Origin: a virus
Taxonomy: Duplodnaviria; Caudoviricetes
IMG/VR virus record: IMGVR_UViG_3300022723_000184
Span: 32,001 to 96,000 of that record
DNA: 64,000 nucleotides
Reading direction: 5' to 3' (one strand)
Positions 1,809-32,167 of the stretch are shown in pieces. The notes under the pieces are model-generated. The model saw nothing but the letters and a program-made list of their open reading frames with translations, ran no database searches and was not told the origin of the DNA. The stretch's first letter is position 1. Each line of letters starts with the position of its first letter. The translations under genes and the position numbers were made by a program.

Positions 1809-4800
1809 GTGACGACCATCTCGAACAACCTGTTCGACCAGGACCCTGCCAACTCGATCCTCCCGGATCCGAGTTTTCCACAGCCCGTCCCCAAACCGGC
1901 TCCTCAGGAGGAAGAGCCGGAAATGCGGCGTTTTGGCGACCCGATTGCCACACGCCGCGCCATTTACGACAGGGTTTTCCAGGCGGCCCAGGAGATGGAG
2001 CCGGTCGTGGGCCAGACCCACACGCTGCGACTGTCCAACCTCAACTGGGCGGATCCCGAGGAATACTCCAAGCGGAAGCGGAAGGAAGCGATCCTCTCCG
2101 GCCAGACGCTTGGTCGCCGTCTTCGCGGGACCTGGGAGTTGGTCAACAACGAGACCGGTGAGGTCCAGGACCGCACGGACAAGACGGTCGCTCGCATCCC
2201 TTACGTGACGGGCAGCGGGACGTTCGTCCACCGGGGCAACGAGTACGCGATCAAGAACCAGCAGCGGCTGCGGGCCGGCGTGTTTACCCGGGTCAAGGAC
2301 AACGGGGAGGTCGAGGCCCACGCCAACATCCTCCGCGGCGGCCCGAGCCACCGGTACTTCCTGGACCCGGCCAAGGGTGTGTTCTACATGCGCCTCGGCC
2401 AGGCCAAGATCCCAATGATGCCCCTGCTCAAGGCGATGGGTGCGACCGACGCCCAGCTGCGTGAGGCTTGGGGCCCGGAGATCCACGCCGCCAACTACGG
2501 GGCCAACGACGCCAGCGCCCTGGTCAAGCTCAAGGAGAAGATCCTCAAGGACCGCTCGGCGAAGCAGGAGGAACTGGTCTCGGCCTTCAACCAGATGGAG
2601 CTGGACCCGGAGGTCACGCAGCGGACGCTGGGCCAGCCGTACGAGAACATGGGCCTCGACACGCTGCTCGACACGTCCAAGAAGCTGCTGGCGGTCAGCC
2701 GGCAGGAGGCAGACGTCGACGACCGCGACCACCTGGCCTACCAGACGTTCCTGGGTCCCGAGGATCTGCTCGCCGAGCGGATCCGCAAGGACCGGGGCGG
2801 CGTCCGCCGCAAGCTGCTGTGGAAGCTGGCCCGAGAGGGCAACCTGAGCAAGTTGCCGGCCGCCGTGCTCCAGGACCAGGTGGACAGCGCCCTGCTCGAA
2901 TCGGGCCTGGGTCAGGCCCTCGAAGAGATCAACCCGGCCGAGGTCTTCGACAAGCAGACCCAGATCAGCCGGATGGGTGAGGGCGGCATCCCGTCGCTGC
3001 AGGCGGTGCCCGACGAGGCCCGCGGCGTACAGCCCAGCCACATGGGCTTCATGGACCCGCTGCGCACCCCCGAGTGTTACGACGAGCAGACGGAGGTCAT
3101 GACGAAGCAGGGATGGAAACCGTGGCCTTCCGTTACCGAGAGTGATGAGTTCGCTTGTCTGGTGGACGGTCGTCTGGAGTTTCATCTCGCAGACAAACTG
3201 GTGTCGTACCGGTACGTCGGGCAGATGTGTGGCGCGAAGACAGCCTTGGTCGACTACCTGGTCACGCCGGACCACCGCATGTACGTTCGCCGCGGTTACG
3301 ATACACCTCACTGGCGGATCGAGACGGCGAACGAGACGCATGAGGCTCATGTTCGGATTTTGAAATGCGGCGGCCACTCGCCTTACGTCGGGATGGCGTT
3401 CGATCCCGGTCTACCTGTCTTTGAGTCGCGGTCGAACAACAGCAAGGCGATCGACCTGGCGACCACGGACCCGTGCGACTGGGCGGAGTTTGTCGGGTGG
3501 TACCTGTCGGAAGGCAACTTGGCTGTTTCCGAGTCTAGACAGTCTTATAAGGTCATGATCACTCAGAGCCCGGAAGCGAACCCGGAGAACCATACCCGGA
3601 TCCGGGACTTGTTGGATCGTCTACCGTTCGACTGGTCTTTCTGTAACCACGAGAAAGCATTTGTCGTGAGCCGCCGCCACCTTTATGAGTGGGCCAAACC
3701 GCTAGGAAAGTGTGACGACAAATTCATTCCCGCTCGTTGCTTCGATTGGCCCGAGGAAGCTCGTCGATCGTTGTTGGAGGGTCTGTTACTGGGCGACGGC
3801 CGTAAGGCAGTTAAAGGCGGCAGAGTGGGCCGGCCCACACAGTACTGTTCGACTAGCCGCAGGCTGGCTTATGACGTTCAGAGGCTGTTGTTCACCCTTG
3901 GTGTCTCGTCCCGGGTGGTATTCGAGCCGGACGAACGGGAGGATCACTATCTCGGATGCTGGGTCGTGCATATCCACGCGAGAACGCAGCGGCGAGTTGG
4001 TCGTGCTCATGCAGCTAAAGAAAGCGATTTCCACCTGGAGAGTTACGACGGTCATGTCTACTGCGCTTCTGTTCCTGGTGGGCTTTTGTACGTGCGTCGC
4101 AACGAGAGCTGCGGCATTTGGTGCGGCAACAGCTTCCGGGTCGGTGTCGACGTGCACCTGGCCCGCAATGCCCGCAAGGGGCGTGACGGCAAGCTCTACG
4201 CCCAGTTCCGTGACGCCCGGTCGGGCAAGGACGTGTGGCGCACGCCGCAGGACGTCGCCGACCTGGCCGTGGCGTTCCCCGGCTCCATGAAGTCGGAGGC
4301 CAGGCGGGTGCCGGCCATGAAGAACGGCCGGATCCGGTGGGTGCCCAAGGAGAAGGTTGACCTGGTGCTCAGCACCTTCGAGAACGCCTTCAGCCCGTTG
4401 GGCAACATGGTCCCGCTCAAGAGCATGGTGAAGGGCCAGCGGGTGGCGATGGCCAGCCGGATGAGCGTAACGGGTGACGCCTGGGTTGTAGTGCTGCGAA
4501 AATCTGGTGACGCCTATTACGGCCCGATACGAGATTACGTGTGGAGGAAAGGCGACAAGTCTCCGTCTATCGATAAGGTTACGCACCGGCTGGTGTGGAA
4601 ACCGGTGCGAGCTAAGCTAGTACACCGGAACACGAAACGTCTTATGCGGGTGACGGTTGATAGCGGTAGGAGCTTTGTTGCTACTGAGGATCACAGTTGC
4701 GTTACGCTAGGTAAATCTGGACGTCTTGAAAAGATTAAAACCGGTGATTTATCTAAAGGCCTACCCGTTCCTTATGCCGCGACGCTTGATTGCCCCGAGA

Positions 4801-7800
4801 CGTACCAGAAAACGTGGAATGTGCCGAACGGAAACAAGCACAACGCCCATCCGGGTGTCGCGTTTCCGTTAACACGGGATGTAGGCTGGTTTTTGGGGTT
4901 GTACGTTGCCGAGGGTTACGGGGTCGGCAAAGATGCTCGCGCTGTGGCGCTTGCTAACATCTCTCCCGAAGTGCAGACCAGGGTTTGCCGGTTTATGGCT
5001 GACATTGGTTTGTGCGTGAAGCCGTCTTCCGGCAGCGACGGGGTGAACGACCGGGTTGTTATCAACTGGCTGCAGTTATACAGAAAGTTGCGAGAGGATT
5101 TCGGGGACGGGGCTTATAACAAAAGGCTTCCCGCCTGGGTGCATTTTTCGCCGAAAGCGTTCCGGGAAGGTCTGTTGTCGGGATACATGGCTGGCGATGG
5201 GATCGTATCGAAACCAGTAGCCCGTTCAACAACAACCGGCGGCGGCAGCCGCAGCCTGGACCTGGTCAACGGGTTGACGCTTCTTTGTGCGTCACTCGGT
5301 ATTTCAACGTCTGTGTCCTCGCCCTGGGTTAATACCGGCCCGGGAGGATCCCGGGTGCAACAACACAAGTTCACGATACGTAAAGAGCACCAACATCTAC
5401 TCCCCGTGATCGGCCACCCGGAAAAAGACAAAAAAATGCAACGGTCGTCGTGGTCGGGCAAGCGGTCTTACGACTGGATACCGATTTTCGACGACCTTAG
5501 ACCTATGTTTAATCGGCGAACGCAGCGTCGCGACAACCGCCGCCGGCGGCTGGATAACCGTTATATGGGTCGCTTGGATCGCCGCGACGTAATCGACTTA
5601 TTTGGGGATGACGCGGAGTGGGCTACCAGGGGTTGGTCGTCGTCGTCTGTCTGGTGGGATCGGGTGAAGCGGGTGGACGAAGTCAGTTCGGACCATGAAT
5701 TCGTTTATGACCTTGACATGGAAGACAACGTGTTCCTGGCCAACGGCGTGTTTGTGCACAATACAACGCAGGCCCTGCCCGTGGCTAACCCCGAGGCGCC
5801 ACTCGTCCAGTCGGCGGTTCCCGGCAGCGGCGGGGCAATCAGCTTCGAGGACGAGTACGGATCGCACATGGGTGCGGTGCGTGCCGATCAGCCCGGTCGC
5901 GTGGTGGCGGTCACCGACGACGAGATCACCGTGCAGTACGCCGACAACAGCCGGGCGAACATCGAGCTGTACAACAACCATCCGTACAACCGTAAGAGCG
6001 TGACCGGTGACACCGAGATTCTGATCCGCAGAAGGGCGGAATCTGGGCGGTCGAGGCAAGGGCTTTACATCTGGCGAGGCCCGATTCGCGAGTATCAGTG
6101 GCGAGACGACGACTACGTCCTTTCGGTGTGTCCGAAAACGAAGCAGTCTGCGTGGAAGAAGGTCATCGCGAAAACGGCTCATCCCAACGACAAACGTCTG
6201 TTGCGGGTGAAGACAGCGTCCGGCCGTCATGTTGTGGTGACCGAAGACCACAGCCTGGTGACGATGGGTAGCGATGGAACACTCGTGCCTATCTATCCGG
6301 ACGATTGCCAGGTCGGCAAGACACGGTTGCCTGTGGCTAAGATCCCCGAAATGGTCTCGTCGAAGACGTATCCGGGCAAGTCTCGTAACGACGGTCGCGT
6401 GGTCGGCCTATACCTTGCGGAAGGGCACTGCCCGCCCAGTCAGCCAAACCTGGTGACGATTTCGGTTGAGCCGGACGATCGGGCAGAGACGGTACTGGCT
6501 TTGTTGAGAACCGTTTCGGAGGGCTACGAGCCGTTCCGAAACGGCGGTACCGTTTGTATGACGGCGCCGAAACTGGTCAAGAGGTTGGTGAAACAGTTCG
6601 GACACCGGTCACACAACAAGAAGATCCCGTCGCGATTCCTTCGGTACCCAGCCGAGTTCCGAGAAGGACTGGTCGAAGGGTACATGGGTGGCGACGGTTG
6701 CTTTTGGAAGGACGGAAACGGCGGGACTAATTTGGAGGCGACCAGTGTTTCGCGGGAGCTTCGGGACAACCTCGTCGACCTGCTGCTGTCGTTGGACGTG
6801 TTCACGACGCTGAAGACGTCGCCAAGGAAAAAGTACAAGGATGCGTGGCGGGACGGGTATCGCTTCCGCGTCTTGTCCGGGGAGCTACACAAGCTGCCCC
6901 GATGGTTCGTGTACGACGATCGAGAGGAACGGTTGAACGAATCCATCGATTCGCAGTACCGAGCTTCCGTGTACGAGATGGTTCCGGTCCCCGATAAAGA
7001 AGCCAGGACGCTCGTCTATGCCGGCTTCGACAAGACGCCGCTGCAAGGAAAAGTTGCCAAGCACAGGCTGGCCGGATCCAAAAGCGTGTTCGGCAAGTGG
7101 GGTGTCTCTGACGTCATGTGGGATGAGATCGTGGCGATCGAATCGGCGGACCACGAAGAGGAGGTCTACGACCTTTCCGTGCAAGACTCGGAGATGTTCG
7201 CTGTTTGTCACGGCCTGGTCGTACACAACACATACATCCATCAGACGCCGACGGTCCGGCCTGGCCAGTCCTTCAAGGCCGGAGACCTGCTTGCCCGGTC
7301 GAACTACACCAACGACCAGGGCGCGACGGCCCTGGGCGTCAACGCCCGCGTTGCTTACGTGCCGTGGGGCGGCAAGAACTTTGAAGACGCCATCGTGATC
7401 TCGGACTCCATGGCCAAGCGGTTGAGTTCCGAGCACATGTACCAGCACGACCTTGAGATCAGCGCCCGGACCCGCACTGGCAAGAACACCTACCTCTCGC
7501 TGTTCCCCGGCAAGTACGACAAGAAGACCCTGGAAAACATGGACGCTGACGGCGTCGTCAAACCAGGCACAGTCGTGCAACACGGGGATCCGCTAATCCT
7601 GGCTGCCGAAGAGCGGAGCCGGGCGCTGAACAAGGTTCACAAGAAGCGTCAGCCTGGCTTCCAAGACAACAGCATCACGTGGAAGCATCACGACGAAGGC
7701 GTGGTGACCGATGTGGTGAAGACCAAGAACGGCCCGGTCGTCTTGGTCAAGGGCCGGCAGGAGATGAAGGTCGGCGACAAGATGTGTTACGACCCGGAGA

Positions 7801-8831
7801 CTAGCCTACTCACGCGGCAAGGTTGGAAGCCTGTTGCGGAGGTTACGCTCGACGACGAGTTGGCGACGCTGAACCCGGAAACGGAAGAACTGGAGTACCA
7901 CAAACCAACTCACGTGCACTCGTTTGCTCACACGGGGGAGATGTACTACCTGAATACCAAGCACCTCAACATGCTGGTGACGCCGGAGCATCGCTTGTGG
8001 GTTGCTCGTCCGGGCCAGACCTACGGCGAGGTGACGGCTAAAGACTTCTACGAGTCGAAGGGCGAATGGCAGTTCAAGAAAGACTGCAAGTGGGTTGGCG
8101 AAGAACGCTTGTTGATGGAGTTCGAGCCGTACATCGCGAGGAACAGTCGAGAGCAAGTCCTGGAATCTGTACCCATGGACATTTGGCTCAGGTTCATCGG
8201 GTATTACCTGTCAGAGGGTCGAACTTGTCGTACTTCGAGCGGCGGGTATCAGGTGCAGATCAGCCAGTTCCGAACGTCTTCGGTTTGGGAGGACATTCAC
8301 GACACGCTGGTCGAGCTTGGTCTGCGTTTCTCGTACCGAGAAAACGAAAATAGGTTTGAGATCAACTCCAAGTGGTTGTACGGGGTGTTGCTGCCGTTGG
8401 GCAGCGATGCGTACTCGAAGCGAGTGCCGGAATACGTACAAGAACTGTGCTCTCGCCAGATCTCCGTCTTGTTCGATTCTTACATGGAAGGAGACGGACA
8501 TAAGGGGGCGTGCTGGGAGTTTGGAACGTCGAGCGAGCAGTTGGCTTTCGACCTTCAAGTGTTGTGTTTGAAGTTGGGCTGGTGTGTCAAGTTGAAGCCC
8601 GTCGACCGTGAAGACAACCTTCAAAAGAACCCTCACTGGCGGGGCCGAGTTAATCGTTCTCATCTGCGGCCTTGGTGGAAGAAAGGGCAGGCAAAGACCT
8701 ACGCGTCCAACGAAGAGAAGATGGTGCAGTACGACGGCGAGGTCTACTGCGTGACAGTTCCCAATCACATCGTTTATTGCAAGAGGGAGGACAAAACGTA
8801 CTGGTCGCTGAACAGCGGCCGGTACGGCTAG
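1809..8831 (+). CDS. rpoB: Phage multi-subunit RNA polymerase beta subunit, N-terminal ~800 extein aa plus 4 inteins; ends at an in-frame TAG inside the GRxGxKG motif
   Basis: Beta motifs after removing inteins: FVHRGNEYAIKNQQRLRAG, HMGFMDPLRTPE|S, AMASRM|TTQALP, NRK|TYIHQTP..GDLLA, GVNARVAYVPWGGKNFEDAIVIS, MKVGDKM|SGRYG. Confidence 0.92.
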   Translation: MTTISNNLFDQDPANSILPDPSFPQPVPKPAPQEEEPEMRRFGDPIATRRAIYDRVFQAAQEMEPVVGQTHTLRLSNLNWADPEEYSKRKRKEAILSGQTLGRRLRGTWELVNNETGEVQDRTDKTVARIPYVTGSGTFVHRGNEYAIKNQQRLRAGVFTRVKDNGEVEAHANILRGGPSHRYFLDPAKGVFYMRLGQAKIPMMPLLKAMGATDAQLREAWGPEIHAANYGANDASALVKLKEKILKDRSAKQEELVSAFNQMELDPEVTQRTLGQPYENMGLDTLLDTSKKLLAVSRQEADVDDRDHLAYQTFLGPEDLLAERIRKDRGGVRRKLLWKLAREGNLSKLPAAVLQDQVDSALLESGLGQALEEINPAEVFDKQTQISRMGEGGIPSLQAVPDEARGVQPSHMGFMDPLRTPECYDEQTEVMTKQGWKPWPSVTESDEFACLVDGRLEFHLADKLVSYRYVGQMCGAKTALVDYLVTPDHRMYVRRGYDTPHWRIETANETHEAHVRILKCGGHSPYVGMAFDPGLPVFESRSNNSKAIDLATTDPCDWAEFVGWYLSEGNLAVSESRQSYKVMITQSPEANPENHTRIRDLLDRLPFDWSFCNHEKAFVVSRRHLYEWAKPLGKCDDKFIPARCFDWPEEARRSLLEGLLLGDGRKAVKGGRVGRPTQYCSTSRRLAYDVQRLLFTLGVSSRVVFEPDEREDHYLGCWVVHIHARTQRRVGRAHAAKESDFHLESYDGHVYCASVPGGLLYVRRNESCGIWCGNSFRVGVDVHLARNARKGRDGKLYAQFRDARSGKDVWRTPQDVADLAVAFPGSMKSEARRVPAMKNGRIRWVPKEKVDLVLSTFENAFSPLGNMVPLKSMVKGQRVAMASRMSVTGDAWVVVLRKSGDAYYGPIRDYVWRKGDKSPSIDKVTHRLVWKPVRAKLVHRNTKRLMRVTVDSGRSFVATEDHSCVTLGKSGRLEKIKTGDLSKGLPVPYAATLDCPETYQKTWNVPNGNKHNAHPGVAFPLTRDVGWFLGLYVAEGYGVGKDARAVALANISPEVQTRVCRFMADIGLCVKPSSGSDGVNDRVVINWLQLYRKLREDFGDGAYNKRLPAWVHFSPKAFREGLLSGYMAGDGIVSKPVARSTTTGGGSRSLDLVNGLTLLCASLGISTSVSSPWVNTGPGGSRVQQHKFTIRKEHQHLLPVIGHPEKDKKMQRSSWSGKRSYDWIPIFDDLRPMFNRRTQRRDNRRRRLDNRYMGRLDRRDVIDLFGDDAEWATRGWSSSSVWWDRVKRVDEVSSDHEFVYDLDMEDNVFLANGVFVHNTTQALPVANPEAPLVQSAVPGSGGAISFEDEYGSHMGAVRADQPGRVVAVTDDEITVQYADNSRANIELYNNHPYNRKSVTGDTEILIRRRAESGRSRQGLYIWRGPIREYQWRDDDYVLSVCPKTKQSAWKKVIAKTAHPNDKRLLRVKTASGRHVVVTEDHSLVTMGSDGTLVPIYPDDCQVGKTRLPVAKIPEMVSSKTYPGKSRNDGRVVGLYLAEGHCPPSQPNLVTISVEPDDRAETVLALLRTVSEGYEPFRNGGTVCMTAPKLVKRLVKQFGHRSHNKKIPSRFLRYPAEFREGLVEGYMGGDGCFWKDGNGGTNLEATSVSRELRDNLVDLLLSLDVFTTLKTSPRKKYKDAWRDGYRFRVLSGELHKLPRWFVYDDREERLNESIDSQYRASVYEMVPVPDKEARTLVYAGFDKTPLQGKVAKHRLAGSKSVFGKWGVSDVMWDEIVAIESADHEEEVYDLSVQDSEMFAVCHGLVVHNTYIHQTPTVRPGQSFKAGDLLARSNYTNDQGATALGVNARVAYVPWGGKNFEDAIVISDSMAKRLSSEHMYQHDLEISARTRTGKNTYLSLFPGKYDKKTLENMDADGVVKPGTVVQHGDPLILAAEERSRALNKVHKKRQPGFQDNSITWKHHDEGVVTDVVKTKNGPVVLVKGRQEMKVGDKMCYDPETSLLTRQGWKPVAEVTLDDELATLNPETEELEYHKPTHVHSFAHTGEMYYLNTKHLNMLVTPEHRLWVARPGQTYGEVTAKDFYESKGEWQFKKDCKWVGEERLLMEFEPYIARNSREQVLESVPMDIWLRFIGYYLSEGRTCRTSSGGYQVQISQFRTSSVWEDIHDTLVELGLRFSYRENENRFEINSKWLYGVLLPLGSDAYSKRVPEYVQELCSRQISVLFDSYMEGDGHKGACWEFGTSSEQLAFDLQVLCLKLGWCVKLKPVDREDNLQKNPHWRGRVNRSHLRPWWKKGQAKTYASNEEKMVQYDGEVYCVTVPNHIVYCKREDKTYWSLNSGRYG
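3075..4130 (+). mobile_element. Intein 1 in beta (352 aa, LAGLIDADG)
   Basis: CYDEQTEV...WCGN followed by +1 Ser; motifs GWYLSEG and GLLLGDG; more AT-rich than flanks. Confidence 0.9.
4464..5762 (+). mobile_element. Intein 2 in beta (433 aa, Ser1, LAGLIDADG)
   Basis: SVTGDAWV...VYDLDMEDNVFLANGVFVHN followed by +1 Thr; motifs GLYVAEG and GYMAGDG. Confidence 0.9.
5997..7229 (+). mobile_element. Intein 3 in beta (411 aa, Ser1, LAGLIDADG)
   Basis: SVTGDTEI...VYDLSVQDSEMFAVCHGLVVHN followed by +1 Thr; motifs GLYLAEG and GYMGGDG. Confidence 0.9.
7785..8813 (+). mobile_element. Intein 4 in beta (343 aa, LAGLIDADG)
   Basis: CYDPETSL...VYCVTVPNHIVYCKREDKTYWSLN followed by +1 Ser, inside GDKM|SGRYG; motifs GYYLSEG and SYMEGDG. 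Confidence 0.9.
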
Positions 8832-8833
8832 GT

Positions 8834-11800
8834 GATAAAGGAGTTGTTGCCGCGATCATCCCCGACAACCAGATGCCCCACGACAAAGCGGGCAGCCCGT
8901 ACGAGGTGCTGCTCAACCCCCTTGGGGTCATCAGCCGCTGTTACGACGAGCAGACTGAGTTCTTGACGGATCGAGGCTGGGTGTTTGGTCGTGACGTTCA
9001 TCAAGACGACCAGTTCGTTTGCTACCACGTCTGGACCGAGAACCTGTACACAATGCCACAGTTGGAGAAGTTTCACGTTGCGGACTACACAGGCAAAATG
9101 CTGAAGTTTGAGAACAAGCTCATGGACTTCTGCGTCACGCCGAATCACCGCATGTGGGCTGCTTGTGGATACCCCGGCGCGCCATGGCAGGAAGTGACGG
9201 CCGAGCGAATTTTCGACCGAAACGGGTGGAAGGTGCCTGTGGCCGGAAACCCGGTACCCGGTGAAGATCGGGACTTCGTGTTGCCGCAGATCGAGCGCCA
9301 CGTGAAGGATACGCAGTCGTCTGTAGAAGAAATTGTGATTGAAGCCGGGGACTGGGCCGAGTTCCTTGGTTGGTACGTGGCCGAAGGTAACGCCGACGAG
9401 AAAGTCCACATCTCTCAGAGTATCGAGGCTAATCCGGAAAACTGTAGCCGGATCGAGGAGCTGTTGAATCGCCTTCCGTTCGCCTGGAACTACAACGCGA
9501 AGAACACGCAGTTCCACATCACATCGAAGCGTCTTTGTGAGCACCTGAAACCGTTGGGGCTGTGTGATGAGAAGCACGTCCCGGACTGGGTCTTCTCGCA
9601 GAGCCCAGAGACACGGCAGCGGTTCCTAGATAGCTATCTGGCCGGTGACGGCGACAAAGATCAGACGAACAGAGACCATGCGTATTGGGGCGCCGGTACA
9701 ACGTCAAAACAGTTGGCGCAGGACCTCCAGCGACTGCTTATCTACCAAGGCTATTCGGCGAATACGTCGAAGCAGCCTTCGGGTATGTGGCGGGTCGGTA
9801 TTCACGCTAAACGGCACCGAATCTTGGAGAAACAGAACTGGGCCGAAGTTGACTACGACGGTAAGATCTATTGCCCGACGGTGCCAACCGGGTACATCGT
9901 GACTCGCCGCAACGGAAAGGTTTTGATCGCGGGCAACACCAACCCGGCCCAGATGGTGGAGGCCGCGTTGGGCAAGCTCGCCAAGCACCGCGGCCAGCCG
10001 ATCAAGGTCGAGGACTTCGACGAGAACATCGAGGACATGACTGAGTGGGCCAGGGATCAGCTGCGTAAGGCGGGGCTCTCGGACACCGAGGACATTGTCG
10101 ACCCTAGCACCGACAAGAAGATCAAGGGGATCAACACCGGCAACCGCTTCTTCATGAAGCTGCACCACACGGCGGAATGTTTTGACGATCAAACCGAGGT
10201 ACTTACAAAGCGAGGGTGGGTCTCGTGGGTTGATGCGCGAGACGATGATGAGTTCGCGACGCTTGATGGCGGCGACCTTGTTTATGAGCAGGCCGAGCGG
10301 GTAGTTCGCAGCGAGTACTACGGGCAATTGTGTTGTTTTGAGGGCAGATACCTTGACTATGCCGTTACCCCGAATCACCGACTCTGGTTGAAATCTTATA
10401 ACTGGCAAAAGGAGTGGGGGTTTCGCGAGGCCGGTGAGGTTCATGGGCGGCGGTTCTCTGTGCAACAATTCGGTCCCTCGGCGGCAGGTAACAATCCCGC
10501 AACCACTAAGATCGGCGATGACGACGTGGATTGGGATGATTACGCGGAGCTTGTTGGGTGGTGGGTCACTGAGGGGTACGCCAAGGTTACGCGTCGCCGG
10601 GCCTGCGTGATGATCTATCAAAGTGAATCCGCGAACCCGGAAAAACTTGCTAGGATTGAGGAGCTTGTGGCTCGTTTGCCGTGGCCCTGGCATTATTACA
10701 AAGTAAAAGGCGAGATTTTCGGTGTTGGCATTAGTAGTAGGGCACTTGCTGAGCATTTGAAGCAGTACGGAACACATTCACACAATAAGCGCTTACCGCG
10801 GCATCTCCTTGAGGGAGGATTGACCGGGCGACAGCGACTATTCGCGTCGATGATGGATGGCGACGGCAATCGGCAGACCACGCCGACTGGAAACATGGAA
10901 AGATTCACGACGACCTCTAAGGGGTTGGCAGATGATTTTCAGGAGTTGTGTGTTCGATCCGGATTCGGTGCGGTTATCCGCCCGGTTAAGCCGAGGAAAG
11001 AGACGCATTATTTGCCTGCGTGGACTTGCGGCGTCGCGTTGTCGCGAACAACCGCCCAGATCGACGGTGACCGCAATCTGGGCGGGTTCTCCCTTCGCAT
11101 GTACAAAGGCGTTGTTTATTGCGCAACGATGCGAACGGGGATGCTATATGTTCGGCGTAACGGTAAGCCGATGTGGAGCGGTAACTCCAAAGGACAGGGA
11201 CGTGGATCCGGAGGTTATACGGCTGAGGATGCACCGGCGAAGGGCGGCGAGACGGGCAGCAAGAGAATTGCGCTGCTCGATGTTAACGCCCTCCTCTCCC
11301 ACGGCGCTACAGAGGTTCTTCGGGATGCTTCTGCGATTCGCGGGCAGAAAAACGAAGACTACTGGCTGCAGTTCATGCAGGGCTACACACCTAAGCAGCC
11401 GAAGGTCCCGCTCGTCTACGAGAAGTTCGTCAACGAGCTGAAGGGCGCCGGGATCAACGTGGTGCGTGACGGGACGCAGACCAACATCATGGCGCTGACC
11501 GATGACGACATCGATCAGCTGGCCGGCGACCGCACGATCAAGTCGGGCGAGACCGTCCACTTCGACAAGGACCTCAAGCCGATCCCGGGCGGCCTGTTCG
11601 ACCCGGCGGTGACCGGCGGTCACCACGGTCGGCGGTGGGCCGCGATCAAGCTGGCCGAGCCCATGCCCAACCCGGTGATGGAAGAGCCGATCCGTCGAGT
11701 GCTCGGGCTGACTGGCAAGAAGTTCCAGGACATTATCGCGGGCAAGGACACGCTGCCCCGTTACGGCACCGGGCTGCGGGCGATTTCCGAGGCACTCGAA

Positions 11801-12877
11801 AACATCAACCTCGACCGCGAGATCCTGAGGACGCAGGGCGAGATCAAGAACGGGACGAAGGCGGCACGCGACGCCGCCGTGCGAAGGCTCGGCTACCTGA
11901 AGAGCGCCAAGCGGCTCAACATCCACCCGCGACAGTGGATGCTCAAGAAGGCCCCGGTCCTGCCTCCGCAGTTCCGCCCGGTCAGCGTGATGACCGACAA
12001 AGAGATCCCGCTCGTCGCCGATCCCAACTTCCTCTACAAGGAGTTGATCGAGGCGAACAACAACCTCATCGACATGAAAGGTGCGGTCGGCGATGAAGTG
12101 GGTGACGAGCGGCTGGCGGTCTACAACGCGTTCAAGGCGGTGACAGGGCTCGGCGACCCGATCACGCAGGAGTCGAAAGAGAAGAACGTCCGCGGCATCC
12201 TCAAGAGCGTGTTCGGCTCCAGCCCGAAGTTCGGCACCGCGCAGCGGAAGCTCATCGGGACGACGGTCGATAACGTGGGGCGTGCGGTGATCACGCCGAA
12301 CCCCTCGCTCGACATGGACAGCGTCGGCCTGCCCGAGGACCGGGCGTTCGAGGTGTACAAGCGGTTCCTGGTCCGCCGGCTCAAGCGGAAGGGGATGCCT
12401 GTGGCCCAGGCCATGCGGCACGTCAACGAGAAGTCGAGCTTGGCCCGAGACGTCTTGATTGAGGAGATGGAGCAGCGGCCGGTGATCATCAACCGGGCGC
12501 CCGTCCTCCACCGGTTCGGGATCATGGCCTTCAAGCCTCGCCTGGTGAAGGGCAGCACCCTGCAGGTGAGCCCGCTGGTCGTGAAGGGGTTCAACGCTGA
12601 CTTCGACGGCGACGCCATGAACTACCACGTGCCGACGGACGAGGAGGCCCGCAAAGAGGCTCTCGACCGGATGCTCCCCAGCCGCCAGTTGCTGAGCCCG
12701 TCCGACTTTAAGTCGCCGGTCCACGCTCCGAGCCAGGAGTACGTCGGCGGTCTGTACCACGCCACCGCAAGCAAGAGCGAGCGGCCGGTTCGGACGTTCG
12801 CCAGCCAGAAGGACGCGATCGCCGCGTACAGGCGAGGCGAGATCAGCATCGACGACCAGGTGCAGATCATCGGGTAG
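8834..12877 (+). CDS. rpoB-rpoC: RNAP beta C-terminus fused in frame to beta' N-terminal half (catalytic NADFDGD), with 2 inteins; no credible start codon of its own
   Basis: DKGVV, LLNPLGVISR|TNPAQ, FMKLHHTAE|SKGQGR and YEKFVNELKGAGINVV are the end of beta. These run directly into PGGLFDPAVTGG, KLAEPMPNP, PVLPPQFRP, VGRAVITP, RPVIINRAPVLHRFGI and GFNADFDGDAM (12593-12613), which are beta'. Confidence 0.92.
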   Translation, partial: DKGVVAAIIPDNQMPHDKAGSPYEVLLNPLGVISRCYDEQTEFLTDRGWVFGRDVHQDDQFVCYHVWTENLYTMPQLEKFHVADYTGKMLKFENKLMDFCVTPNHRMWAACGYPGAPWQEVTAERIFDRNGWKVPVAGNPVPGEDRDFVLPQIERHVKDTQSSVEEIVIEAGDWAEFLGWYVAEGNADEKVHISQSIEANPENCSRIEELLNRLPFAWNYNAKNTQFHITSKRLCEHLKPLGLCDEKHVPDWVFSQSPETRQRFLDSYLAGDGDKDQTNRDHAYWGAGTTSKQLAQDLQRLLIYQGYSANTSKQPSGMWRVGIHAKRHRILEKQNWAEVDYDGKIYCPTVPTGYIVTRRNGKVLIAGNTNPAQMVEAALGKLAKHRGQPIKVEDFDENIEDMTEWARDQLRKAGLSDTEDIVDPSTDKKIKGINTGNRFFMKLHHTAECFDDQTEVLTKRGWVSWVDARDDDEFATLDGGDLVYEQAERVVRSEYYGQLCCFEGRYLDYAVTPNHRLWLKSYNWQKEWGFREAGEVHGRRFSVQQFGPSAAGNNPATTKIGDDDVDWDDYAELVGWWVTEGYAKVTRRRACVMIYQSESANPEKLARIEELVARLPWPWHYYKVKGEIFGVGISSRALAEHLKQYGTHSHNKRLPRHLLEGGLTGRQRLFASMMDGDGNRQTTPTGNMERFTTTSKGLADDFQELCVRSGFGAVIRPVKPRKETHYLPAWTCGVALSRTTAQIDGDRNLGGFSLRMYKGVVYCATMRTGMLYVRRNGKPMWSGNSKGQGRGSGGYTAEDAPAKGGETGSKRIALLDVNALLSHGATEVLRDASAIRGQKNEDYWLQFMQGYTPKQPKVPLVYEKFVNELKGAGINVVRDGTQTNIMALTDDDIDQLAGDRTIKSGETVHFDKDLKPIPGGLFDPAVTGGHHGRRWAAIKLAEPMPNPVMEEPIRRVLGLTGKKFQDIIAGKDTLPRYGTGLRAISEALENINLDREILRTQGEIKNGTKAARDAAVRRLGYLKSAKRLNIHPRQWMLKKAPVLPPQFRPVSVMTDKEIPLVADPNFLYKELIEANNNLIDMKGAVGDEVGDERLAVYNAFKAVTGLGDPITQESKEKNVRGILKSVFGSSPKFGTAQRKLIGTTVDNVGRAVITPNPSLDMDSVGLPEDRAFEVYKRFLVRRLKRKGMPVAQAMRHVNEKSSLARDVLIEEMEQRPVIINRAPVLHRFGIMAFKPRLVKGSTLQVSPLVVKGFNADFDGDAMNYHVPTDEEARKEALDRMLPSRQLLSPSDFKSPVHAPSQEYVGGLYHATASKSERPVRTFASQKDAIAAYRRGEISIDDQVQIIG
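8939..9937 (+). mobile_element. Intein 5 (333 aa, LAGLIDADG)
   Basis: CYDEQTEF...IYCPTVPTGYIVTRRNGKVLIAGN followed by +1 Thr; motifs GWYVAEG and SYLAGDG. Confidence 0.9.
10178..11185 (+). mobile_element. Intein 6 (336 aa, LAGLIDADG)
   Basis: CFDDQTEV...VYCATMRTGMLYVRRNGKPMWSGN followed by +1 Ser; motifs GWWVTEG and SMMDGDG. Confidence 0.9.
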
Positions 12878-14857: not shown

Positions 14858-17800
14858 ATGAAGGCGACGGTCGGTCAACTTCTGGTGAACGACGCACTCC
14901 CGGAGGACATGCGGGACTACCAAATGGTCCTCGACAAAAAGGGTGTGCGGAATCTCATGGCCGACCTGGCCCGTAAGCACCCGGAGGATTACCGGGAGGT
15001 CAGCCACAAGCTCTCACAGATCGGTTGGCGTTCGGCCCAGGAATCCGGCGGCTACAGCTTCGGCTTGGAGCACATGCTCAAAAGCAAGACCGGCCGAGAG
15101 ACCCGCCAACGCATCCAGAAAAAGATCAACGAGATCCTCGCCGACGACCGGCTCACCGACGAGCAGCGTGAGCAGCTGATCCTCAAGCACATCGGCAAGG
15201 AACGCGAGGCCATGCAGTCGGGGATCTTCGACGAGGCCCGCGCCGCGAAGAACCCGCTGGCCATGCAGGTGTTGGGCTCGGGCCGCGGCAACCCGATGAA
15301 CCTGTCGAGCCTGTTGGGCTCGGACCTGCTGTACACCGACCAGCGTGACCGGCTGATTCCGATCCCCGTGCTCCGCAGTTACAGCGAGGGCCTGAGCCCC
15401 GCCGAGTACTGGGCCGGGACCTACGGCGCCCGCAAGGGCGTGATGTGTTTGGCTAAAGGAACTCAGGTGCTGATGGCCGATTACACGGACAAGCCGATCG
15501 AGAAGGTGAAACCTGGTGACTGGGTGATGGGATCTGATCGTCAAGGGCGGATGACGCCTGTGAGGGTTATCCGTCGTTACTACAACGGTGTGCAGCCTTG
15601 CTACCGCTACCGATTTCGCAAAAATAGTTGCCGTTTGCCGTCCTCGCATCGAACACTCGTGGCGACCGAAAAGCATAAGGTCCTTGCCACCGTAAAAGCC
15701 GGACGACCCGGTTCAACCTATGCACACCGGTCAATCTACGTCCCGACACCATTACCGCTTGAAGCGGCGCGTCTGCTTAAAAATCCAGTAAAGAATGAAT
15801 ACGTGGCGACGCCGGCGGCCGGGGAGGCGGGCGAGCAGTCCCGAGTGCGAGAACCGTCGGCCTTGTTGTATGGGTTGATGCTCGGCGACGGGTGTATGGC
15901 AGAATCGACCCGTGGGCGGTATTTGTTGTCGTGCAATGACCCGCTCCTTTTGGACGACCTGCGTGAGTACATCTCATTGTTCGACGTGTTTTTGGACAAA
16001 GCAGGCGGTGATAATTACAACTATACGCTGGCGGGCGATGGGGGGGCTGCGGTTGCGGTCGATTTGAAGACGCGTCTCGGCGAGAAATTGGCCCACGATA
16101 AGGAGCTTCCAGAGGGTTGTTTCGCATGGGACGATGTTTCGGTTGGTCAGTTGCTCGGAGGATTGTTTTCCACCGACGGCTCGATTACTGGCCGAAACGG
16201 TAACGCAACAATTAAGTTGACACTTTCTTCCCGGCGTATGGTGGAACAAGTGCAACGACTGTTGGAACTCCGGTTGGGTATATGGTCCGGCGGGCTGATC
16301 TTCACAGCTAAAGAAAAGAAGAAGAACGCAACGCACGACCAATGGGGTTTTGCGGTGTCACACGCTGCGTCGGTTGCCAGGTTTTTCGCGCGGGTCCCCT
16401 TGTACGGCAAGAAGAGGGTTCAGGCGAAGCGTATCGCGGCTACCATGAAACCGGACCACTCAAACGGGTCACCGGGGTTTAAGATCTACGATCGAGAACC
16501 GGCTGGCGAAATTGCTACATATGATTTGGAGGTTGATCACCCAGACCACCTGTTTGTGCTTTCTAGCGGCCTGGTCGTGTCCAACAGCACGAAGTTCGCC
16601 ACCCAGGAGGCGGGCTTCCTCTCTAAGCAGCTCAACCAGATGGGCCACCGCCTGGTGGTCACAGATGAGGACGGGGACGGCGAGCCCGATTCGCTCCGCG
16701 GCCTGCCGGTGGATGTCGACGACCCGGACTCCGCGGGAAGCCTGCTGGCCCACGACGCCGGCGGCTACAAGCGGAATACGGTGATCACGCCCAAGATCCT
16801 GCACAACCTTCGCCGCCAAGGTCTCAAGCGGATACTGGTCCGCAGCCCCACGGTCGGTGGTAGCCCTGAGGGTGGTATCTACAGCCGTGACGCCGGCGTC
16901 CGCGAGAAGGGCGGGCTCCCGGGTCGCGGCGAGAACATCGGCCTGGCCGCTGCCCAGGCGTTGTGTTTGTCTGGAGGGACGAGAGTCCAGATGGCCAACG
17001 GAGAGGTCAAAGCGGTGGAGGACGTTAAGCCCGGAGATGTAGTTCTGGGATGCAGTGTCGACGGGGTGTTGCGGCCTGTTCCTGTGCTTGACGCTTGTTT
17101 CAGCGGCATTAAATCGTGTGTGAAGGCCCTGTTCAGGCGGGGCACGGGTAAGGCCGCCAAAGACAATCTGCTAGAGCTGGTCGCGACTCCAGAGCACAAA
17201 ATACTCTCCGAGATTGTTGTTCGTTCGGGTAGGGGTTCGGTAAAACGTGTTCCTTACTTCGATCCGGTTGCCGTTCGCCCGCTCGGAACCAAAATCCCAC
17301 ATGAAAAGCGATCAGGGGGCGATCGGTTCTGCGCTAAACTGGCGTCGTCCTTTGACGATACCGGGCTTGGTGTTCAACCTTTAGCTTTTCTTTTGGGTCT
17401 GGTAATCGGTGATGGTTGCTATAGCGGATCAGCGAACTGCGTAGGGTTCAGCTGTTATGATCCGGTGCTCGCCGCTGACGTCGGTGCGTATCTCAAGCCG
17501 TTGAACTTCGAGATCAAAAACAACACGGATAACGAGTACCGCGTTGTCGATACAACGCACCGCCAAGTGAAGCGACGCGAAGATGGTAGCTGGTATCGCA
17601 GCCGTCTTATTGAGCTGCTTCGTGTCGAGGGAATGTTCGGGCAGACGAGCAGTATTAAGACTTTGCCGAAGTCCGTGCACTCGTGGGATAACGCGTCTGT
17701 GGCTGCGCTGATCGCCGGTCTGCTCGTAACGGACGGGTACGTGATATCGACGGGCGGTTTGGGGTTCGGATCGAACTCTAAGTGCTTGCTGGATGGCGTT

Positions 17801-20800
17801 CGGCAGCTTCTAGGGTTGCGGTGGGGCGTCTGGGGTTCGTCGGTTATATCTTCCACGAAGAAGCGTGCTGATGGTGATGAGTACGCCCCTAACTGGCGGT
17901 TTACGGTTAATCGCAGAGACGATGTTAATCTTCTTCGTTCTATTCTTCCTGTCGCTGGCGTGAAACGTGGTCGGCTAGACTCGCTGTTATCGAAGTGGAA
18001 CTCGAAACGGCGTTCGGCAAGAGGCGCGCCTAGAGTCAAGGGTCGGTGTACTCGTATTTCATTGGAACGGGTCGGCGAGTTGCCGACATACGACCTGTAC
18101 ATCGCACACCCTGATCACCTTTTCGTGTTGGCCAACGGACTGGTTGTTTCCAACTCCGAGCCCCTGAGTCAGGCTCAGCTTTGCCTTGCAGCAGGGACTC
18201 TAGTGCGGATGGCCGACTGGACGGTGAAACGGATCGAGCAGGTCCGGGCTGACGAACAAATCATGGGAGCCGACAAATCCGGGCGGCTGTTTCCGGTGCG
18301 CGTTGTCCGGGTCTACGACAACGGAGAGCGGGAGTGTGTTCGGACGGTATTCCGGGAAGCCAAAACGAAGCAACACGTCGATCTGGTCAGCACCGGAGAC
18401 CACAAACTCTTGTCCAAGACAAGGCATTGGGCGATACCGTCCGAGCGAGTGGAACACGGCGTGTTTCCGGTCGCCCGGAAATGTGTTGGCTACTCGGCCA
18501 AGATGCCGTTCGCGGTCGTAAACGATCACGGCTGTGCAGAACCGTTTGCCGGCCTGTGCGGTCTGCTGCTGGGTGATGGAGGGTATACTGTCAGCGTTCA
18601 CGGGGTTCACTGGTCTTGTTTCGAGCCGGACCTGGTGGAAGAGATGCAGCCTTACCTGGCAGGACTGGGTTTGAAGGCTACGAAGCTCCAAGGGCACGAA
18701 GGGCACGAAGGCTATTACCGAATCAGCCAGGTCGAAGACGCGATTCGGCAAGACCCGGAGACCGGACGAGTGCTGCCCGGAGACCGTAATCCGGCACTGA
18801 TCTGGTTGAAGCAGCACCGGATGTACGGCAAGTACGCACACGAGAAAGAGATTCCCGAGGAGATTTGGAGTTGGGACCAAAACTCGGTTGCACGATTGCT
18901 GGGCTGCCTGTTTGCGACAGACGGTAGCGTTTATCCGCCGACGCAGCGACCCGATGAACTCTATATCAACTTCAGCTCAACTTCTTTGGAGCTTGCGAAG
19001 CAGGTCAAGGAACTAATTCAGGTCCGCTTTGCGATTCATAGCTCGTCGATCGGAAGCCACAAGGGAAAACGCAAGCGGAAGCTTTATTCGTTCACGATCA
19101 CCCGCAAAGAACAGGTCAGACGGTTCGCGTCTCGGATCGCGGTTCCGGCGCGTAAAGGACAGATGCTGGCCGACTATCTGCCAAAACTCCAGGAAGACGA
19201 GTCCACCGAGTATTTCCATCGCCAGCGGCAGGAACCCGTGGGCACGGTTGCGACATACGATCTCGAAGTCGACCATCCGGACCATCTTTTCGTGCTGGCC
19301 AACGGTCTGATTGTTTCTAACTCGGCCAAGCACTCGGGCGGCGTGGCCGGCAGCGAGAAGGCGGTCTCCGGGTTCGACTACATCAACCAGCTGATCCAGG
19401 TGCCCAAGAAGTTCAAGGGTGGTGCGGCCCATGCCCAGGTCGACGGCATCGTGAGCCGGATCGAAGAGGCTCCGGCCGGTGGCAAGTACGTCGTGATCAA
19501 TAACGAGAAGCACTACGTCGGTCCGGACTTCTCGTTGAAGGTTAAGCGAGGCGACGAGATTGAGGCGGGCGACGTCCTGAGCGAGGGCATCCCGAACCCG
19601 TCGGAGGTCGTGCGCCACAAGGGCGTTGGCGAAGGTCGGCGGTACTTCACCCAGGCCTTCCGCCAGGCGATGCATGAAGCTGGGATACACGCCAGCCGCC
19701 GCAACGTGGAACTGTTGGGTCGGGGCCTGATCGACCATGTGCGGATGACGGATGAGTACGATCAGTACGTCCCGGACGATGTGGTACCCTACAGTGCACT
19801 GGAGCACCGGTGGCAACCCCGGGAAGGGAGCCGCCGGGTCCCGTACAAGCAGGCGGTTGGCAAGTACCTGGAGCGTCCGGTCCTCCACTACACGATCGGC
19901 ACGAAGATCCGGAAATCGATGCTCAAGGACTTCGAGGACTTCGGGGTCGAGGAGCTGGAGACCCATGACGAGCCGCCGCCGTTCGAGCCCGAGATGATCC
20001 GGGGCATGTACTCGGTCCAACACGATCCCGACTGGATGACCAGGATGTACGGCTCAGGCCAGAAGAAGAGCTTGCTGAGTGCCGTGCACCGTGGCGGGAC
20101 CAGTGACGAGCTGGGCACCTCGTTCGTCCCGGGCCTGGCCCGTGGCGTCGACTTCGGCCGGCAGGGCCTGGTCACGCCGCCCGCCCCACCCCAGAAGATG
20201 GGCAGCGACATGCAGAAGGAAGCGGAGGGCATGTGGGGAACCGGGGCCATCCCGGGCTCACCCAACTTCAACCTGCAGCAGCAGGCCCGCCAGTCGTACA
20301 ACGTCGGCAACAGCATGCTCAGCAGTATGCGTGGCGGCGGTGGCGTGGGTCCGGCAACGGCCGGCGACGCCAACCGGTTCCGACAGTACCTCTCGTCTTT
20401 CGCCGCTGCCCCCGGCCCCACCGGGGCACCTGCCGGTCAGGCTGCTGCGTCCGTGGCCCGCCCGGCGGCTGCTACGGCCGGCAGTGCCGCGACCGGCAAC
20501 GGCCTGACCACCGCCGACTGGCACGCGTGGAGTGCTGGACCGATGGGGGCGGGCGCCGCGACCAAGGCCGGGACCCGTCCGCTGGCCGCTGCTGCCCTGC
20601 GGTACGCACCGGCCGTGGCCAAGGCCCCGGGCATCCGCAACCTGGTGGGCGCTATGGCCCGGCCCTCGGCCGCCGCCCAGGCGTTGAGCGGGGTGAAGCC
20701 GCAGATGCCGGGCACCGTCTCGAAGTGGCTGCGGCCCGGCTACCACCAGTACGCGACCAAGGTCCTGGGTCAGTCCCACAACCTGGCTCAGGGTGCCGGC

Positions 20801-31200: not shown

Positions 31201-32167
31201 GTGCAGCGGTTGTGGTAACAAGGCCAGGACCCGCGACGAGTATTGCACCAGTGCCACCTGCAAGTACGGCGGGTGCCGCGACAACCTGACGAAGGTGGCG
31301 GCCGATGGTCACATCCTTCACGTCGACAACCCGAATCCCAACTGGTTCGACATTTCCAACGTCTACCGCCCGGCCGACCGGATCGCTTACGGCGGTGCCG
31401 CCGACTACCTGCAGAAGGCGGCGAGCGCCATCGACTTCATGGGCGGTGCCGAGCTGGCGCAGCACCTGGGCGTGACCGCCCCGCTCAACGTGATCCTCAA
31501 CCAGGACGAGCCGTACCACTGGAACACGGCGATCGACGGACAGATCAAGCTCGCCTACGGCCTGGCCATGCTGGAGAAGAAGGGCCACAACGTGCCCAGC
31601 GAAACCCTCCGGGCTTTCGCCGCTCCGGTCCAGCCCCAGATGAACCAGGAGATGTTCTTGCTCCTGGGAAGCCCGGGCACCGAGAAGTCGGCCACGGCCC
31701 TCGCCGCCTTGGCCGATCGGAAGGTGGTCCTGCCCCTCCGTGAGTTTGCTCGCTGGACCGGCAAGTCGGCTTCGGCCGATGCCGCTGAGGCCCTGCTCCC
31801 TGGCGTGTTCGGACGCCTGGTGGAGCGTGGCGATCTCGAAAGTCGCTTGACGGTCAACCGTTACGCGACTACCGAGAAGACGGCGTCGATCGCCCAGCGG
31901 ACCCTGGCCACCAACCTGGAGGGCGGTTACGGTCTGACCTCGACTGCGGTCAGGGACCGGGCCATGCGGTCCTCGATCCGGCAGGCTCCGGCCCCGGATT
32001 CAAAAAGTACTTTTTGGAATGAGAAGCAGGCCGCAGACTCGCCAGAGGCGGCGAGCTTGGCGGAAGAATACGCCCTCTATAAACTGGCAGCCCTCCACCG
32101 TATCGCGGCCTATGATCAAGAGTTTCATTTGACAGGACGCTTTGCTCTGGCACAGAATTGTGTATGA
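28274..32167 (+). CDS. Prohead (capsid maturation) serine protease with 2 inteins; ~494 extein aa
   Basis: GASEAYG|SNRNGDGF, RNHRNK, PVSMA|CRVPYDECSGCG and WFDISNVYRPADRIAY match the phage prohead protease pattern; located upstream of scaffold and capsid genes. Confidence 0.82.
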   Translation: MSMVKIVDPRGWNWDRPVAQAIKVSSRGLIGNDRSDFLKTASHEFVDMIDNMKVAKDEQPVHLIALGASEAYGCFPAGTPVRMSDGTLKAIDQIAENEYVVDRLGRPAKVLKTWQKPWDGPGISLKVEGLLDNLVQTADHRFYVIKGSQVECLIDKAKHCKPDTCQQNKICSTRNCARASVSYDPGWVEAKDIVAGDYVLAAVPDRGVGEQTWGWSKPLARVIGYFLAEGSYEKSKSDGTRKALRFDFGFDDEPHIIPDFLDCASALLEDYDGLTIKGPYRSEDKHTITYALRHDALVSRVHAAVGEYSTGKRLYGSVFSQHPDIIAEMVGAYLDGDGTCPRYARRDLGTDEGRFACGTASRDLAIDLQWLLGRLGVPATVCAVSEDALAENASGFYHVGFSNTAGSFLQGRCSKYRREEPRQSKQRSFAWNGYIARPVREVNPVRLEEPVFNLEVEGDHTYTVGNGVVVHNSNRNGDGFKEATCKKYHHTFKKHARWYRNHRNKNPEKSYGYIKASAYNHPMRRVELLTMLNKTKEAAERNGGLVADKEMAKIAAGDDIPVSMACFPGDTLVRRWTGEHVPIAEICHGDRVRTHHGNEGEVTLTSRRLYAGDFARIYAYGLPDALSATENHRIWVRPALKGKTPRCPVCGKQFKSLGCHFREQKDAQHALAAANYGRYAEGWVEAGQVVAGDFVRVPIDQEVLEEGDATYAALLGLYLAEGNTWQYARYEKSPLDTYRGVDFSFHREEKELADKTIGLLHELGYRRTHVYLRKNNVRLVRVCSAELADRLEVDGGKGAWGKRISPGIMKWSPPTQKLILENWLEGDGTFSRQHQTVVGVSVSRELCRQMAEIGWRNGICVKLGRQKRGKGCDTCTIRRSEVSRLSLSKVPADFFPPSPVSVSCGHLKNQATAATTKPRISSKPMTFIENGFLYLRVRKVERFYDETYVYNMTVESDHSYTANDVGVSNCRVPYDECSGCGNKARTRDEYCTSATCKYGGCRDNLTKVAADGHILHVDNPNPNWFDISNVYRPADRIAYGGAADYLQKAASAIDFMGGAELAQHLGVTAPLNVILNQDEPYHWNTAIDGQIKLAYGLAMLEKKGHNVPSETLRAFAAPVQPQMNQEMFLLLGSPGTEKSATALAALADRKVVLPLREFARWTGKSASADAAEALLPGVFGRLVERGDLESRLTVNRYATTEKTASIAQRTLATNLEGGYGLTSTAVRDRAMRSSIRQAPAPDSKSTFWNEKQAADSPEAASLAEEYALYKLAALHRIAAYDQEFHLTGRFALAQNCV
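28493..29689 (+). mobile_element. Intein 10 in the protease (399 aa, LAGLIDADG)
   Basis: CFPAGTPV...VFNLEVEGDHTYTVGNGVVVHN followed by +1 Ser; motifs GYFLAEG and AYLDGDG. Confidence 0.9.
29969..31180 (+). mobile_element. Intein 11 in the protease (404 aa, LAGLIDADG)
   Basis: CFPGDTLV...VYNMTVESDHSYTANDVGVSN followed by +1 Cys; motifs GLYLAEG and NWLEGDG. Confidence 0.9.
31999..32019. promoter_or_regulatory. AT-rich palindromic box TTCAAAAAGTACTTTTTGGAA (copy 3), inside the protease 3' end
   Basis: Same box as at 14822-14840, 21636-21647 and 57965-57982. Confidence 0.55.

Follow-up and report, generated by a model that had tools for sequence, protein, structure and literature searches.

How is an essential gene read to its end when an in-frame stop codon and a change of reading frame fall inside a universally conserved motif of its product? 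The question is raised by the RNA polymerase (RNAP) beta gene in a 64,000-nucleotide (nt) stretch of viral DNA, here called the window, which covers positions 32001–96000 of the 201,946-bp IMG/VR virus record IMGVR_UViG_3300022723_000184. The record comes from an uncultured phage and its completeness is estimated at 90%. In this gene a stop codon directly follows a glycine codon, and the frame encoding the remainder of the protein resumes 5 nt later, within a few codons of the end of an intein. The interruption is probably crossed by a programmed short-range translational bypass ('stop-hop'), in which the ribosome would leave the message at one glycine codon and pair with it again at a second. 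Coordinates refer to the window, and the features located in it lie on the plus strand.

The interruption in the beta gene and its relatives

Two open reading frames (ORFs) share the gene between them. Frame 0 is open from 1809 to 8831 (2340 amino acids, aa) and codes for the N-terminal four fifths of RNAP beta together with four inteins (1–4). From the ORF list, translation and Pfam, this upstream part of the beta-beta'N gene is assigned to 1809–8828, ending with the last sense codon; position 1809 marks the opening of the frame rather than a fixed start codon. Its Pfam matches are RNA_pol_Rpb2_6, Rpb2_3, Intein_splicing and LAGLIDADG_3. The second frame is already open ahead of 8834 and stays so up to 12877. 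Its part at 8834–12877, assigned by translation and Pfam, begins DKGVV and covers the remainder of beta, in which inteins 5 and 6 lie, continuing into a fused N-terminal half of beta' that includes NADFDGD; it matches Rpb2_6 at profile positions 230–267, Rpb1_1 and Rpb1_2. The Rpb2_6 (PF00562) pieces are collinear (43–228, 230–267 and 269–346) and correspond to Rpb2 domain 6 with its G-R-x-G-x-K-G motif, the counterpart of which in solved bacterial beta subunits is GRHGNKG. Because GDKLSGRYGDKGVV of an intein-less relative aligns with GDKMAGRHGNKGVI of one such subunit (PDB 7l7b chain C), the break can be placed in this universally conserved motif. The 202-kb record contains no beta gene besides the interrupted one.

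At 8811–8831, frame 0 reads AAC AGC GGC CGG TAC GGC TAG (N-S-G-R-Y-G-stop); from 8834 onward, frame +2 reads GAT AAA GGA GTT GTT (D-K-G-V-V), and the full junction was read through 8845. The putative take-off codon is GGC at 8826–8828, the last glycine codon of SGRYG, with the in-frame TAG at 8829–8831 predicted to stand in the A site at take-off. The putative landing codon is GGT at 8831–8833, the first GGN triplet 3' of take-off; it abuts GAT 8834, and its first G is the last base of the TAG. Intein 4 ends at 8813, and 15 nt separate its C-terminal splice junction from the start of the insert. A preliminary description of this DNA had reported the same break, with DKGVV resuming in another frame, and the Logan assembly of run SRR23862443 (L020) confirms it, being identical to the genome over 13,023 nt with the junction included. 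The description had also held that removal of exactly 5 nt restores SGRYGDKGVV, which agrees with the unbroken reading of twelve intein-less relatives, and that a glycine codon directly precedes the resume codon, as the sequence bears out. It was likewise right that no credible start exists downstream: the earliest ATG of the resumed frame, at 8873–8875, lies 13 codons past the Lys codon and would lose that conserved residue.

Interrupted alleles were gathered by a protein search with the intein 4 region, from the DNA of its matches, and by two pattern scans covering IMG/VR and metagenome contigs. In all, 16 non-identical interrupted alleles were obtained from Logan, ENA, NCBI, JGI and IMG/VR, representing more than 15 datasets. 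The protein search returned eleven proteins, one of them the window's own, with inteins 53–89% identical and all ending ...N[S/C]GRYG. A blastn 'distant' search with 8300–9400 against the phage GenBank collection gave no match, and an exact-pattern scan of viral contigs for near-identical junctions found only the contig's own record. An alignment of orthologues, proposed in the preliminary description as a check, places the interruption at the same codon in all 16 alleles. The twelve relatives that lack an intein at the site, nine related viral contigs (42–63% extein identity) and three found by pattern, carry SGRYGDKG or a close variant, unbroken, in the context GDK[LM]SGRYGDKG.

Between the Gly codon of SGRYG and the GAY of DKG, eleven distinct inserts are found, with lengths of 5, 6, 7, 8, 9, 10 and 11 nt. 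The window allele has TAGGT (5 nt); the others are TGAGGT (6 nt), TGAAGGC (7 nt), TAATAGGT, TGAATGGT and TGAATGGA (8 nt), TAACTAGGC, TAAATAGGT and TAACTAAGC (9 nt), TGAACTAGGC (10 nt) and TGACTAAAGGT (11 nt). A stop codon directly follows GGC or GGT in 16/16 alleles, and relatives have TAA or TGA where the window has TAG, such that all three stops are represented. Every spacer is free of G and otherwise unconstrained. The final triplet of each insert stands directly before GAY AAA GG. In 14 of the 16 alleles it is GGC or GGT, and of the remaining two one has GGA and the other AGC; apart from the AGC allele, the landing codon is always the first GGN past take-off (15/16). The frame offset differs from allele to allele and may be 0, +1 or +2. 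This conservation of glycine, stop, spacer and glycine across 5–11 nt in 16 diverged alleles supports the GGC-to-GGU stop-hop that the preliminary description had put forward.

Downstream of the insert, the resumed frames stay open for 675–1347 aa wherever the contig is long enough. D-K-G-[VI]-[VIL] is retained and synonymous sites vary, with three Gly codons and six Val/Ile codons in use. From the stop to DKG no allele contains a start codon, and further on no start is conserved: gene callers place it at codon 4, 14 or 25, depending on the allele. Because these codons are conserved at the protein level and no start precedes DKG, they would be translated by ribosomes coming from upstream. The AGC allele occurs in two datasets (L023:3257–3285 and L041, minus strand, ∼3407–3450), where its insert TAACTAAGC is in frame and is followed by more than 1138 aa of open frame. 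Either a first-position mismatch is tolerated at landing in this allele, or it is read through, or it is defective.

A co-varying stem-loop on the 5' side of the putative take-off codon

Immediately upstream of the insert, RNAalifold and RNAfold place a 13-bp stem-loop at 8797–8826, with its 5' arm at 8797–8809, a GAAC loop at 8810–8813 and its 3' arm at 8814–8826. The 5' arm is made of the last intein codons and the 3' arm of the first C-extein codons, and pairing extends up to the first G of GGC, the take-off codon. Over the 16 alleles RNAalifold finds one conserved structure, this stem-loop 5' of the site, and no conserved structure or barrier on the 3' side. Pairing is kept in 99% of cells, with compensatory double changes at five of the 13 pairs. 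Covariation scores 0.246, compared with 0.095 for shuffled data (0/500), and breaks down once the pairing partners are displaced against each other. In one allele, L019, an extein change from CGG to AGG is compensated by an intein change from TGG to CTG; on this alignment, a Trp-to-Leu substitution in the intein is accepted in order to keep the base pair. In each pairwise comparison of the intein region, conservation peaks in the 100-nt bin that contains the stem.

All interrupted alleles fold with energies of −18 to −22.7 kcal/mol at this position. The uninterrupted intein alleles L021, from the same clade, and L055, from the other intein clade, reach −6.6 and −3.7 kcal/mol and have no equivalent stem. 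L055 was the one control found in a scan for W-C-G-N-S-G-R-Y-G-D-K-G. A viral-contig scan for uninterrupted H-W-S-x-N-S-G clade-mates gave no match, and a profile search with the intein alignment yielded nothing beyond previously retrieved contigs and inteins located at different sites.

A Shine-Dalgarno-like GGAGG lies at 8786–8790, 6 nt 5' of the stem-loop (alignment A1 columns 47–58). This position is purine-rich in all interrupted alleles, and the uninterrupted L021 and L055 have no such run; any role of the run is conjectural. The window's own fold has a second hairpin at 8829–8856, starting from the landing codon (GGUGAUAA / UUGUUGCC) and holding AGGAG in its loop, which is not conserved in the 16-allele alignment.

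A candidate stop-hop and its rivals

It is likely that these elements act together during translation. A ribosome on the beta gene would reach the state in which GGC (8826–8828) is in the P site and TAG in the A site. The peptidyl-tRNA(Gly) would then unpair, the mRNA would slide by 5 nt, and the anticodon would pair again with GGU (8831–8833), so that decoding restarts at GAU 8834. The product would be one polypeptide, ...SGRYG-DKGVV..., which protein splicing would convert into the beta-beta'N chain. From the usual length of mRNA covered 5' of the P site, the 3' arm (8814–8826) is expected to be inside the ribosome at take-off, and the 5' arm and loop to have just emerged. Refolding of the hairpin could then pull the mRNA out on the exit side and push the ribosome forward by roughly the length of the gap. 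An efficiency or a regulatory role of such a hop, such as the tuning of RNAP output suggested in the preliminary description, could at most be conjectured from these features.

The first rival holds that each allele is recoded in its own way, by a −1 or +1 frameshift (5, 7, 8, 10 and 11 nt) or by readthrough (6 and 9 nt), leaving one to three extra residues. Taken singly, each allele can be read like this: a −1 shift in the window would give SGRYG-LG-DKG, and readthrough could serve in the AGC allele (L023/L041), which keeps the frame. Taken together, the close relatives would need three unrelated mechanisms, and neither the constant Gly codon before GAY nor the G-free spacer would be explained. 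No slippery heptamer or 3' stimulator is conserved, the sole conserved structure being 5' of the site, and the motif keeps one fixed length in solved beta subunits as well as in all uninterrupted relatives. Allele-specific recoding is thus improbable. Re-pairing of a GGY-bound tRNA with the first GGN codon downstream fits all alleles with one mechanism and always gives SGRYGDKG; this frame-independent event is favoured because offsets of 0, +1 and +2 all occur and no other event would give SGRYGDKG in every allele. An alternative genetic code was rejected, since each of the three stops is used at the site in one allele or another and in most alleles the frame shifts as well.

Split beta and beta' chains are known from jumbo phages, and gene callers annotate two genes in every allele. 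The beta gene of the window might likewise be truly split, with a first chain ending in SGRYG and a second starting downstream (for example at ATG 8873), the two being assembled without covalent joining. Such a gene would have no start before DKG and would depend on called starts that are unconserved; DKGV[VI] and the next eight codons would go untranslated despite their conservation at the protein level, and the conserved Lys of the motif would be lost. A split gene is accordingly quite improbable. Removal of the insert from the RNA before translation, by hairpin-guided excision or editing of some unknown kind, is very improbable: the conserved hairpin does adjoin the insert, but a stop in the A site and matched Gly codons are signatures of translation that excision would not need. 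No bacterial or phage system is known to excise 5–11 nt, which also counts against it. An assembly or sequencing artefact or a decaying pseudogene, both raised as alternatives in the preliminary description, is scarcely credible, for although the source is a metagenome-assembled contig, a second assembler gives the identical junction, more than 15 independent datasets hold 16 diverged alleles interrupted alike with synonymously diverged flanks and intact flanking ORFs, and the interrupted gene is the record's only beta gene.

The programmed stop-hop has its own difficulties. Its product is deduced from the DNA, and unstimulated stop-hops have been described as low-level (PMC5009743; bioRxiv 10.1101/2024.12.09.627546). 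The gap is too short for an A-site stem-loop of the gene 60 kind. A nascent-peptide signal was not identified, and the conservation of the intein C-terminus, K-R-E-D-K-T-Y-W-S-L-N-S-G-R-Y-G, may equally come from intein function or from the RNA stem. Landing codons are imperfect in two alleles, with GGT changed to GGA in L018 and to AGC in L023/L041, and the next GGN of the AGC allele would delete D-K-G. The hairpin control consists of two uninterrupted intein alleles available as DNA (L021 and L055), and some of the local nucleotide conservation could come from gene conversion instead of RNA function. All of these points weigh against the hop. On the other side, the site combines matched take-off and landing codons, an A-site stop, a non-coding gap that is independent of frame and a 5' stem-loop, the features by which bypass is recognised.

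A search for a phage tRNA(Gly) that might aid the hop was negative, aragorn finding no tRNA gene in the 202-kb record. The ends of all long ORFs in the genome gave 85 formal candidates for further hops (matched codons flanking a stop), and no second hop was found; the two with comparably strong hairpins proved to be an antisense shadow frame and two ordinary neighbouring genes.

Linkage to intein 4 and comparison with known systems

Intein 4 (7785–8813) has 343 aa, running from Cys1 to Asn343 with Ser at +1, and is inserted at GDKM^SGRYGDKG. It is an in-frame insert, and orthologues that lack it read GDK[LM]SGRYG continuously. The hallmarks of inteins are invariant in alignment A2: C1, T66 and H69 of block B (T-x-x-H) and the terminal N345. 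Searched alone against Pfam, intein 4 has weak matches to LAGLIDADG_3 (E 0.076; 13.7 bits, cut-off 22.5) and Intein_splicing (E 0.0025), and two LAGLIDADG-like motifs are visible in its sequence. Inteins at the same site number 57 among the retrieved proteins. In a maximum-likelihood tree, 17/17 non-redundant interrupted alleles fall in one clade of 24 (support 100/98); the remaining seven members of the clade are uninterrupted, as are the other 38 inteins. The interruption may have arisen once and been lost again later. Of the uninterrupted clade-mates, most are altered where the stem would be, with Tyr changed to His in the intein and Tyr changed to Val, Phe or Leu in the extein, as though loss of the insert had been followed by decay of the stem. 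In P0007, P0015, P0016 and P0019 (DNA available for L021, ∼6340–6420), SGRVG, SGRFG and SGLLG replace SGRYG.

The histories of intein and extein differ. In P0004 the intein is 88.6% identical to intein 4 and the adjoining extein 65.9%, and the extein of P0111, which has no intein, is 73.5% identical. At the nucleotide level, comparison with L012 gives 64–73% identity in the N-extein and 80–94% in the intein. By these identities the intein is inherited as part of a mosaic and moves horizontally. It takes along the first 15 nt of the C-extein and, presumably, the insert, which depends on the intein because half of the hairpin is intein sequence. Hop and intein are proposed to constitute a single unit, spread by homing or gene conversion. 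The preliminary description had considered the 5 nt as an insertion footprint 15 nt from intein 4; the link to the intein stands, through the 5' arm of the hairpin, and a fresh footprint is very unlikely.

Two advantages of such an arrangement can be offered as speculation: the insert could destroy the target of a homing endonuclease in a motif that is otherwise immutable, and it could make clean loss of the intein lethal. A composite selfish element would result, made of intein and bypass insert, in which a hairpin built from intein and extein codons drives an efficient stop-hop of 5–11 nt, inserts in catalytic motifs destroy immutable endonuclease targets, and the intein cannot be cleanly lost. 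This composite is a tentative proposal, with somewhat less in its favour than against it. If it is true, short hairpin-driven hops would be a general and overlooked feature of phage polymerase genes. In another phage gene, shortly after a related intein, L052:2620–2650 has an in-frame TGA where L053:2530–2560 has CGA (Arg), reading ...SRHGSL-stop-AIQCGVTPV against ...SSRHGSFRAVKCGVTPV; this could be a simple nonsense change or a recoding site.

The setting of the gene is rich in inteins. The RNAP of the window is a beta-beta'N fusion with six inteins (1809–12877), four before the candidate hop and two after it, and a separate ORF of 2248 aa three genes downstream (14858–21604) presumably encodes beta'C with more inteins. 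Relatives have the same RNAP layout with fewer inteins, their beta parts being 1388–1928 aa. In the related phages L012 (1–2644) and L015 (1–1905), whose genomes are intein-rich, an intein-containing ribonucleotide reductase and a LigD-like ligase/primase lie upstream of the RNAP block.

No paper on this RNAP or intein case was found in the literature. Few natural programmed bypass systems are known, and here a whole family would reside in an essential gene. RNAP genes of this kind are split or truncated by gene callers in every assembly examined. The natural series, with gaps of 5–11 nt, three stops, variant landing codons and a co-varying hairpin, is directly usable for testing refolding of the exiting mRNA as the driver of ribosome sliding.

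Probably, the RNAP beta hop works in the manner of gene 60 bypass and of synthetic stop-hops, and is a new, intein-coupled variant with a short gap. Synthetic stop-hops with matched codons around a stop have been described in Escherichia coli (Weiss et al. 1987; PMC5009743): like the alleles here, they are frame-independent (+5, +6 and +9). They were engineered and are low-level without stimulators, whereas the RNAP site is natural, long conserved, in an essential gene and equipped with a co-varying 13-bp hairpin. Shorter natural counterparts of bypass have long been presumed, and the same review knew of no natural in-frame stop-hop (PMC5009743). Terminase genes of Streptomyces phage phiHau3 and of prophages hold inserts of 10 nt and 7 nt for which bypass has been proposed (PMC10732093). 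These share with the RNAP alleles a natural gap of 7–10 nt, an essential phage gene, a junction in a conserved protein segment and a 5' stem-loop flanked by a Shine-Dalgarno-like sequence, proposed there as the stimulator (PMC10732093). They differ in having the rare sense codon UUA in the A site, read as a sensor of a host tRNA, in being known from only three genes, and in having neither an intein nor a covariation series. The mitochondrial byps of Magnusiomyces capitatus resemble the RNAP inserts in that many natural inserts are corrected at translation and spread in the manner of mobile elements, but they are 27–55 nt long, mitochondrial, have an unassigned sense codon in the A site and show no link to inteins.

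The closest parallels are with T4 gene 60 (Huang 1988): a Gly take-off codon, an adjacent stop, a matched Gly codon for landing immediately ahead of the resume codon, one or more 5' stem-loops forming as the mRNA leaves the ribosome, and an A/U-rich gap. For gene 60, a model has been put forward in which the mRNA pairs as it exits, in the 5' and extended stem-loops, and so drives the ribosome forward (Wills et al., bioRxiv 10.1101/2024.12.09.627546); the mechanism proposed here for the RNAP hairpin is the same. The gap is 50 nt there and 5–11 nt here, leaving no room for an A-site stem-loop; the gene 60 hairpin lies 9 nt 5' of take-off, whereas the RNAP hairpin abuts the take-off codon, and neither a nascent-peptide signal nor a 3' barrier was identified at the RNAP site. 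The RNAP site has no ∼50-nt topoisomerase insert beside mobA and is not a sequence homologue of the gene 60/MobA cassette. Both are found in the gene of an essential phage enzyme, and both are linked to a homing element. In gene 60 the element travels with the endonuclease MobA (bioRxiv 10.1101/2022.08.31.505936), and the insert protects against it (Manning and Atkins, bioRxiv 10.1101/2022.08.31.505936). Gene 60 pairs a topoisomerase with free-standing MobA, and the gene described here pairs RNAP beta with an intein bearing LAGLIDADG-like motifs. Beside the pair of gene 60 and MobA, inteins would be a second class of homing element connected with translational recoding.

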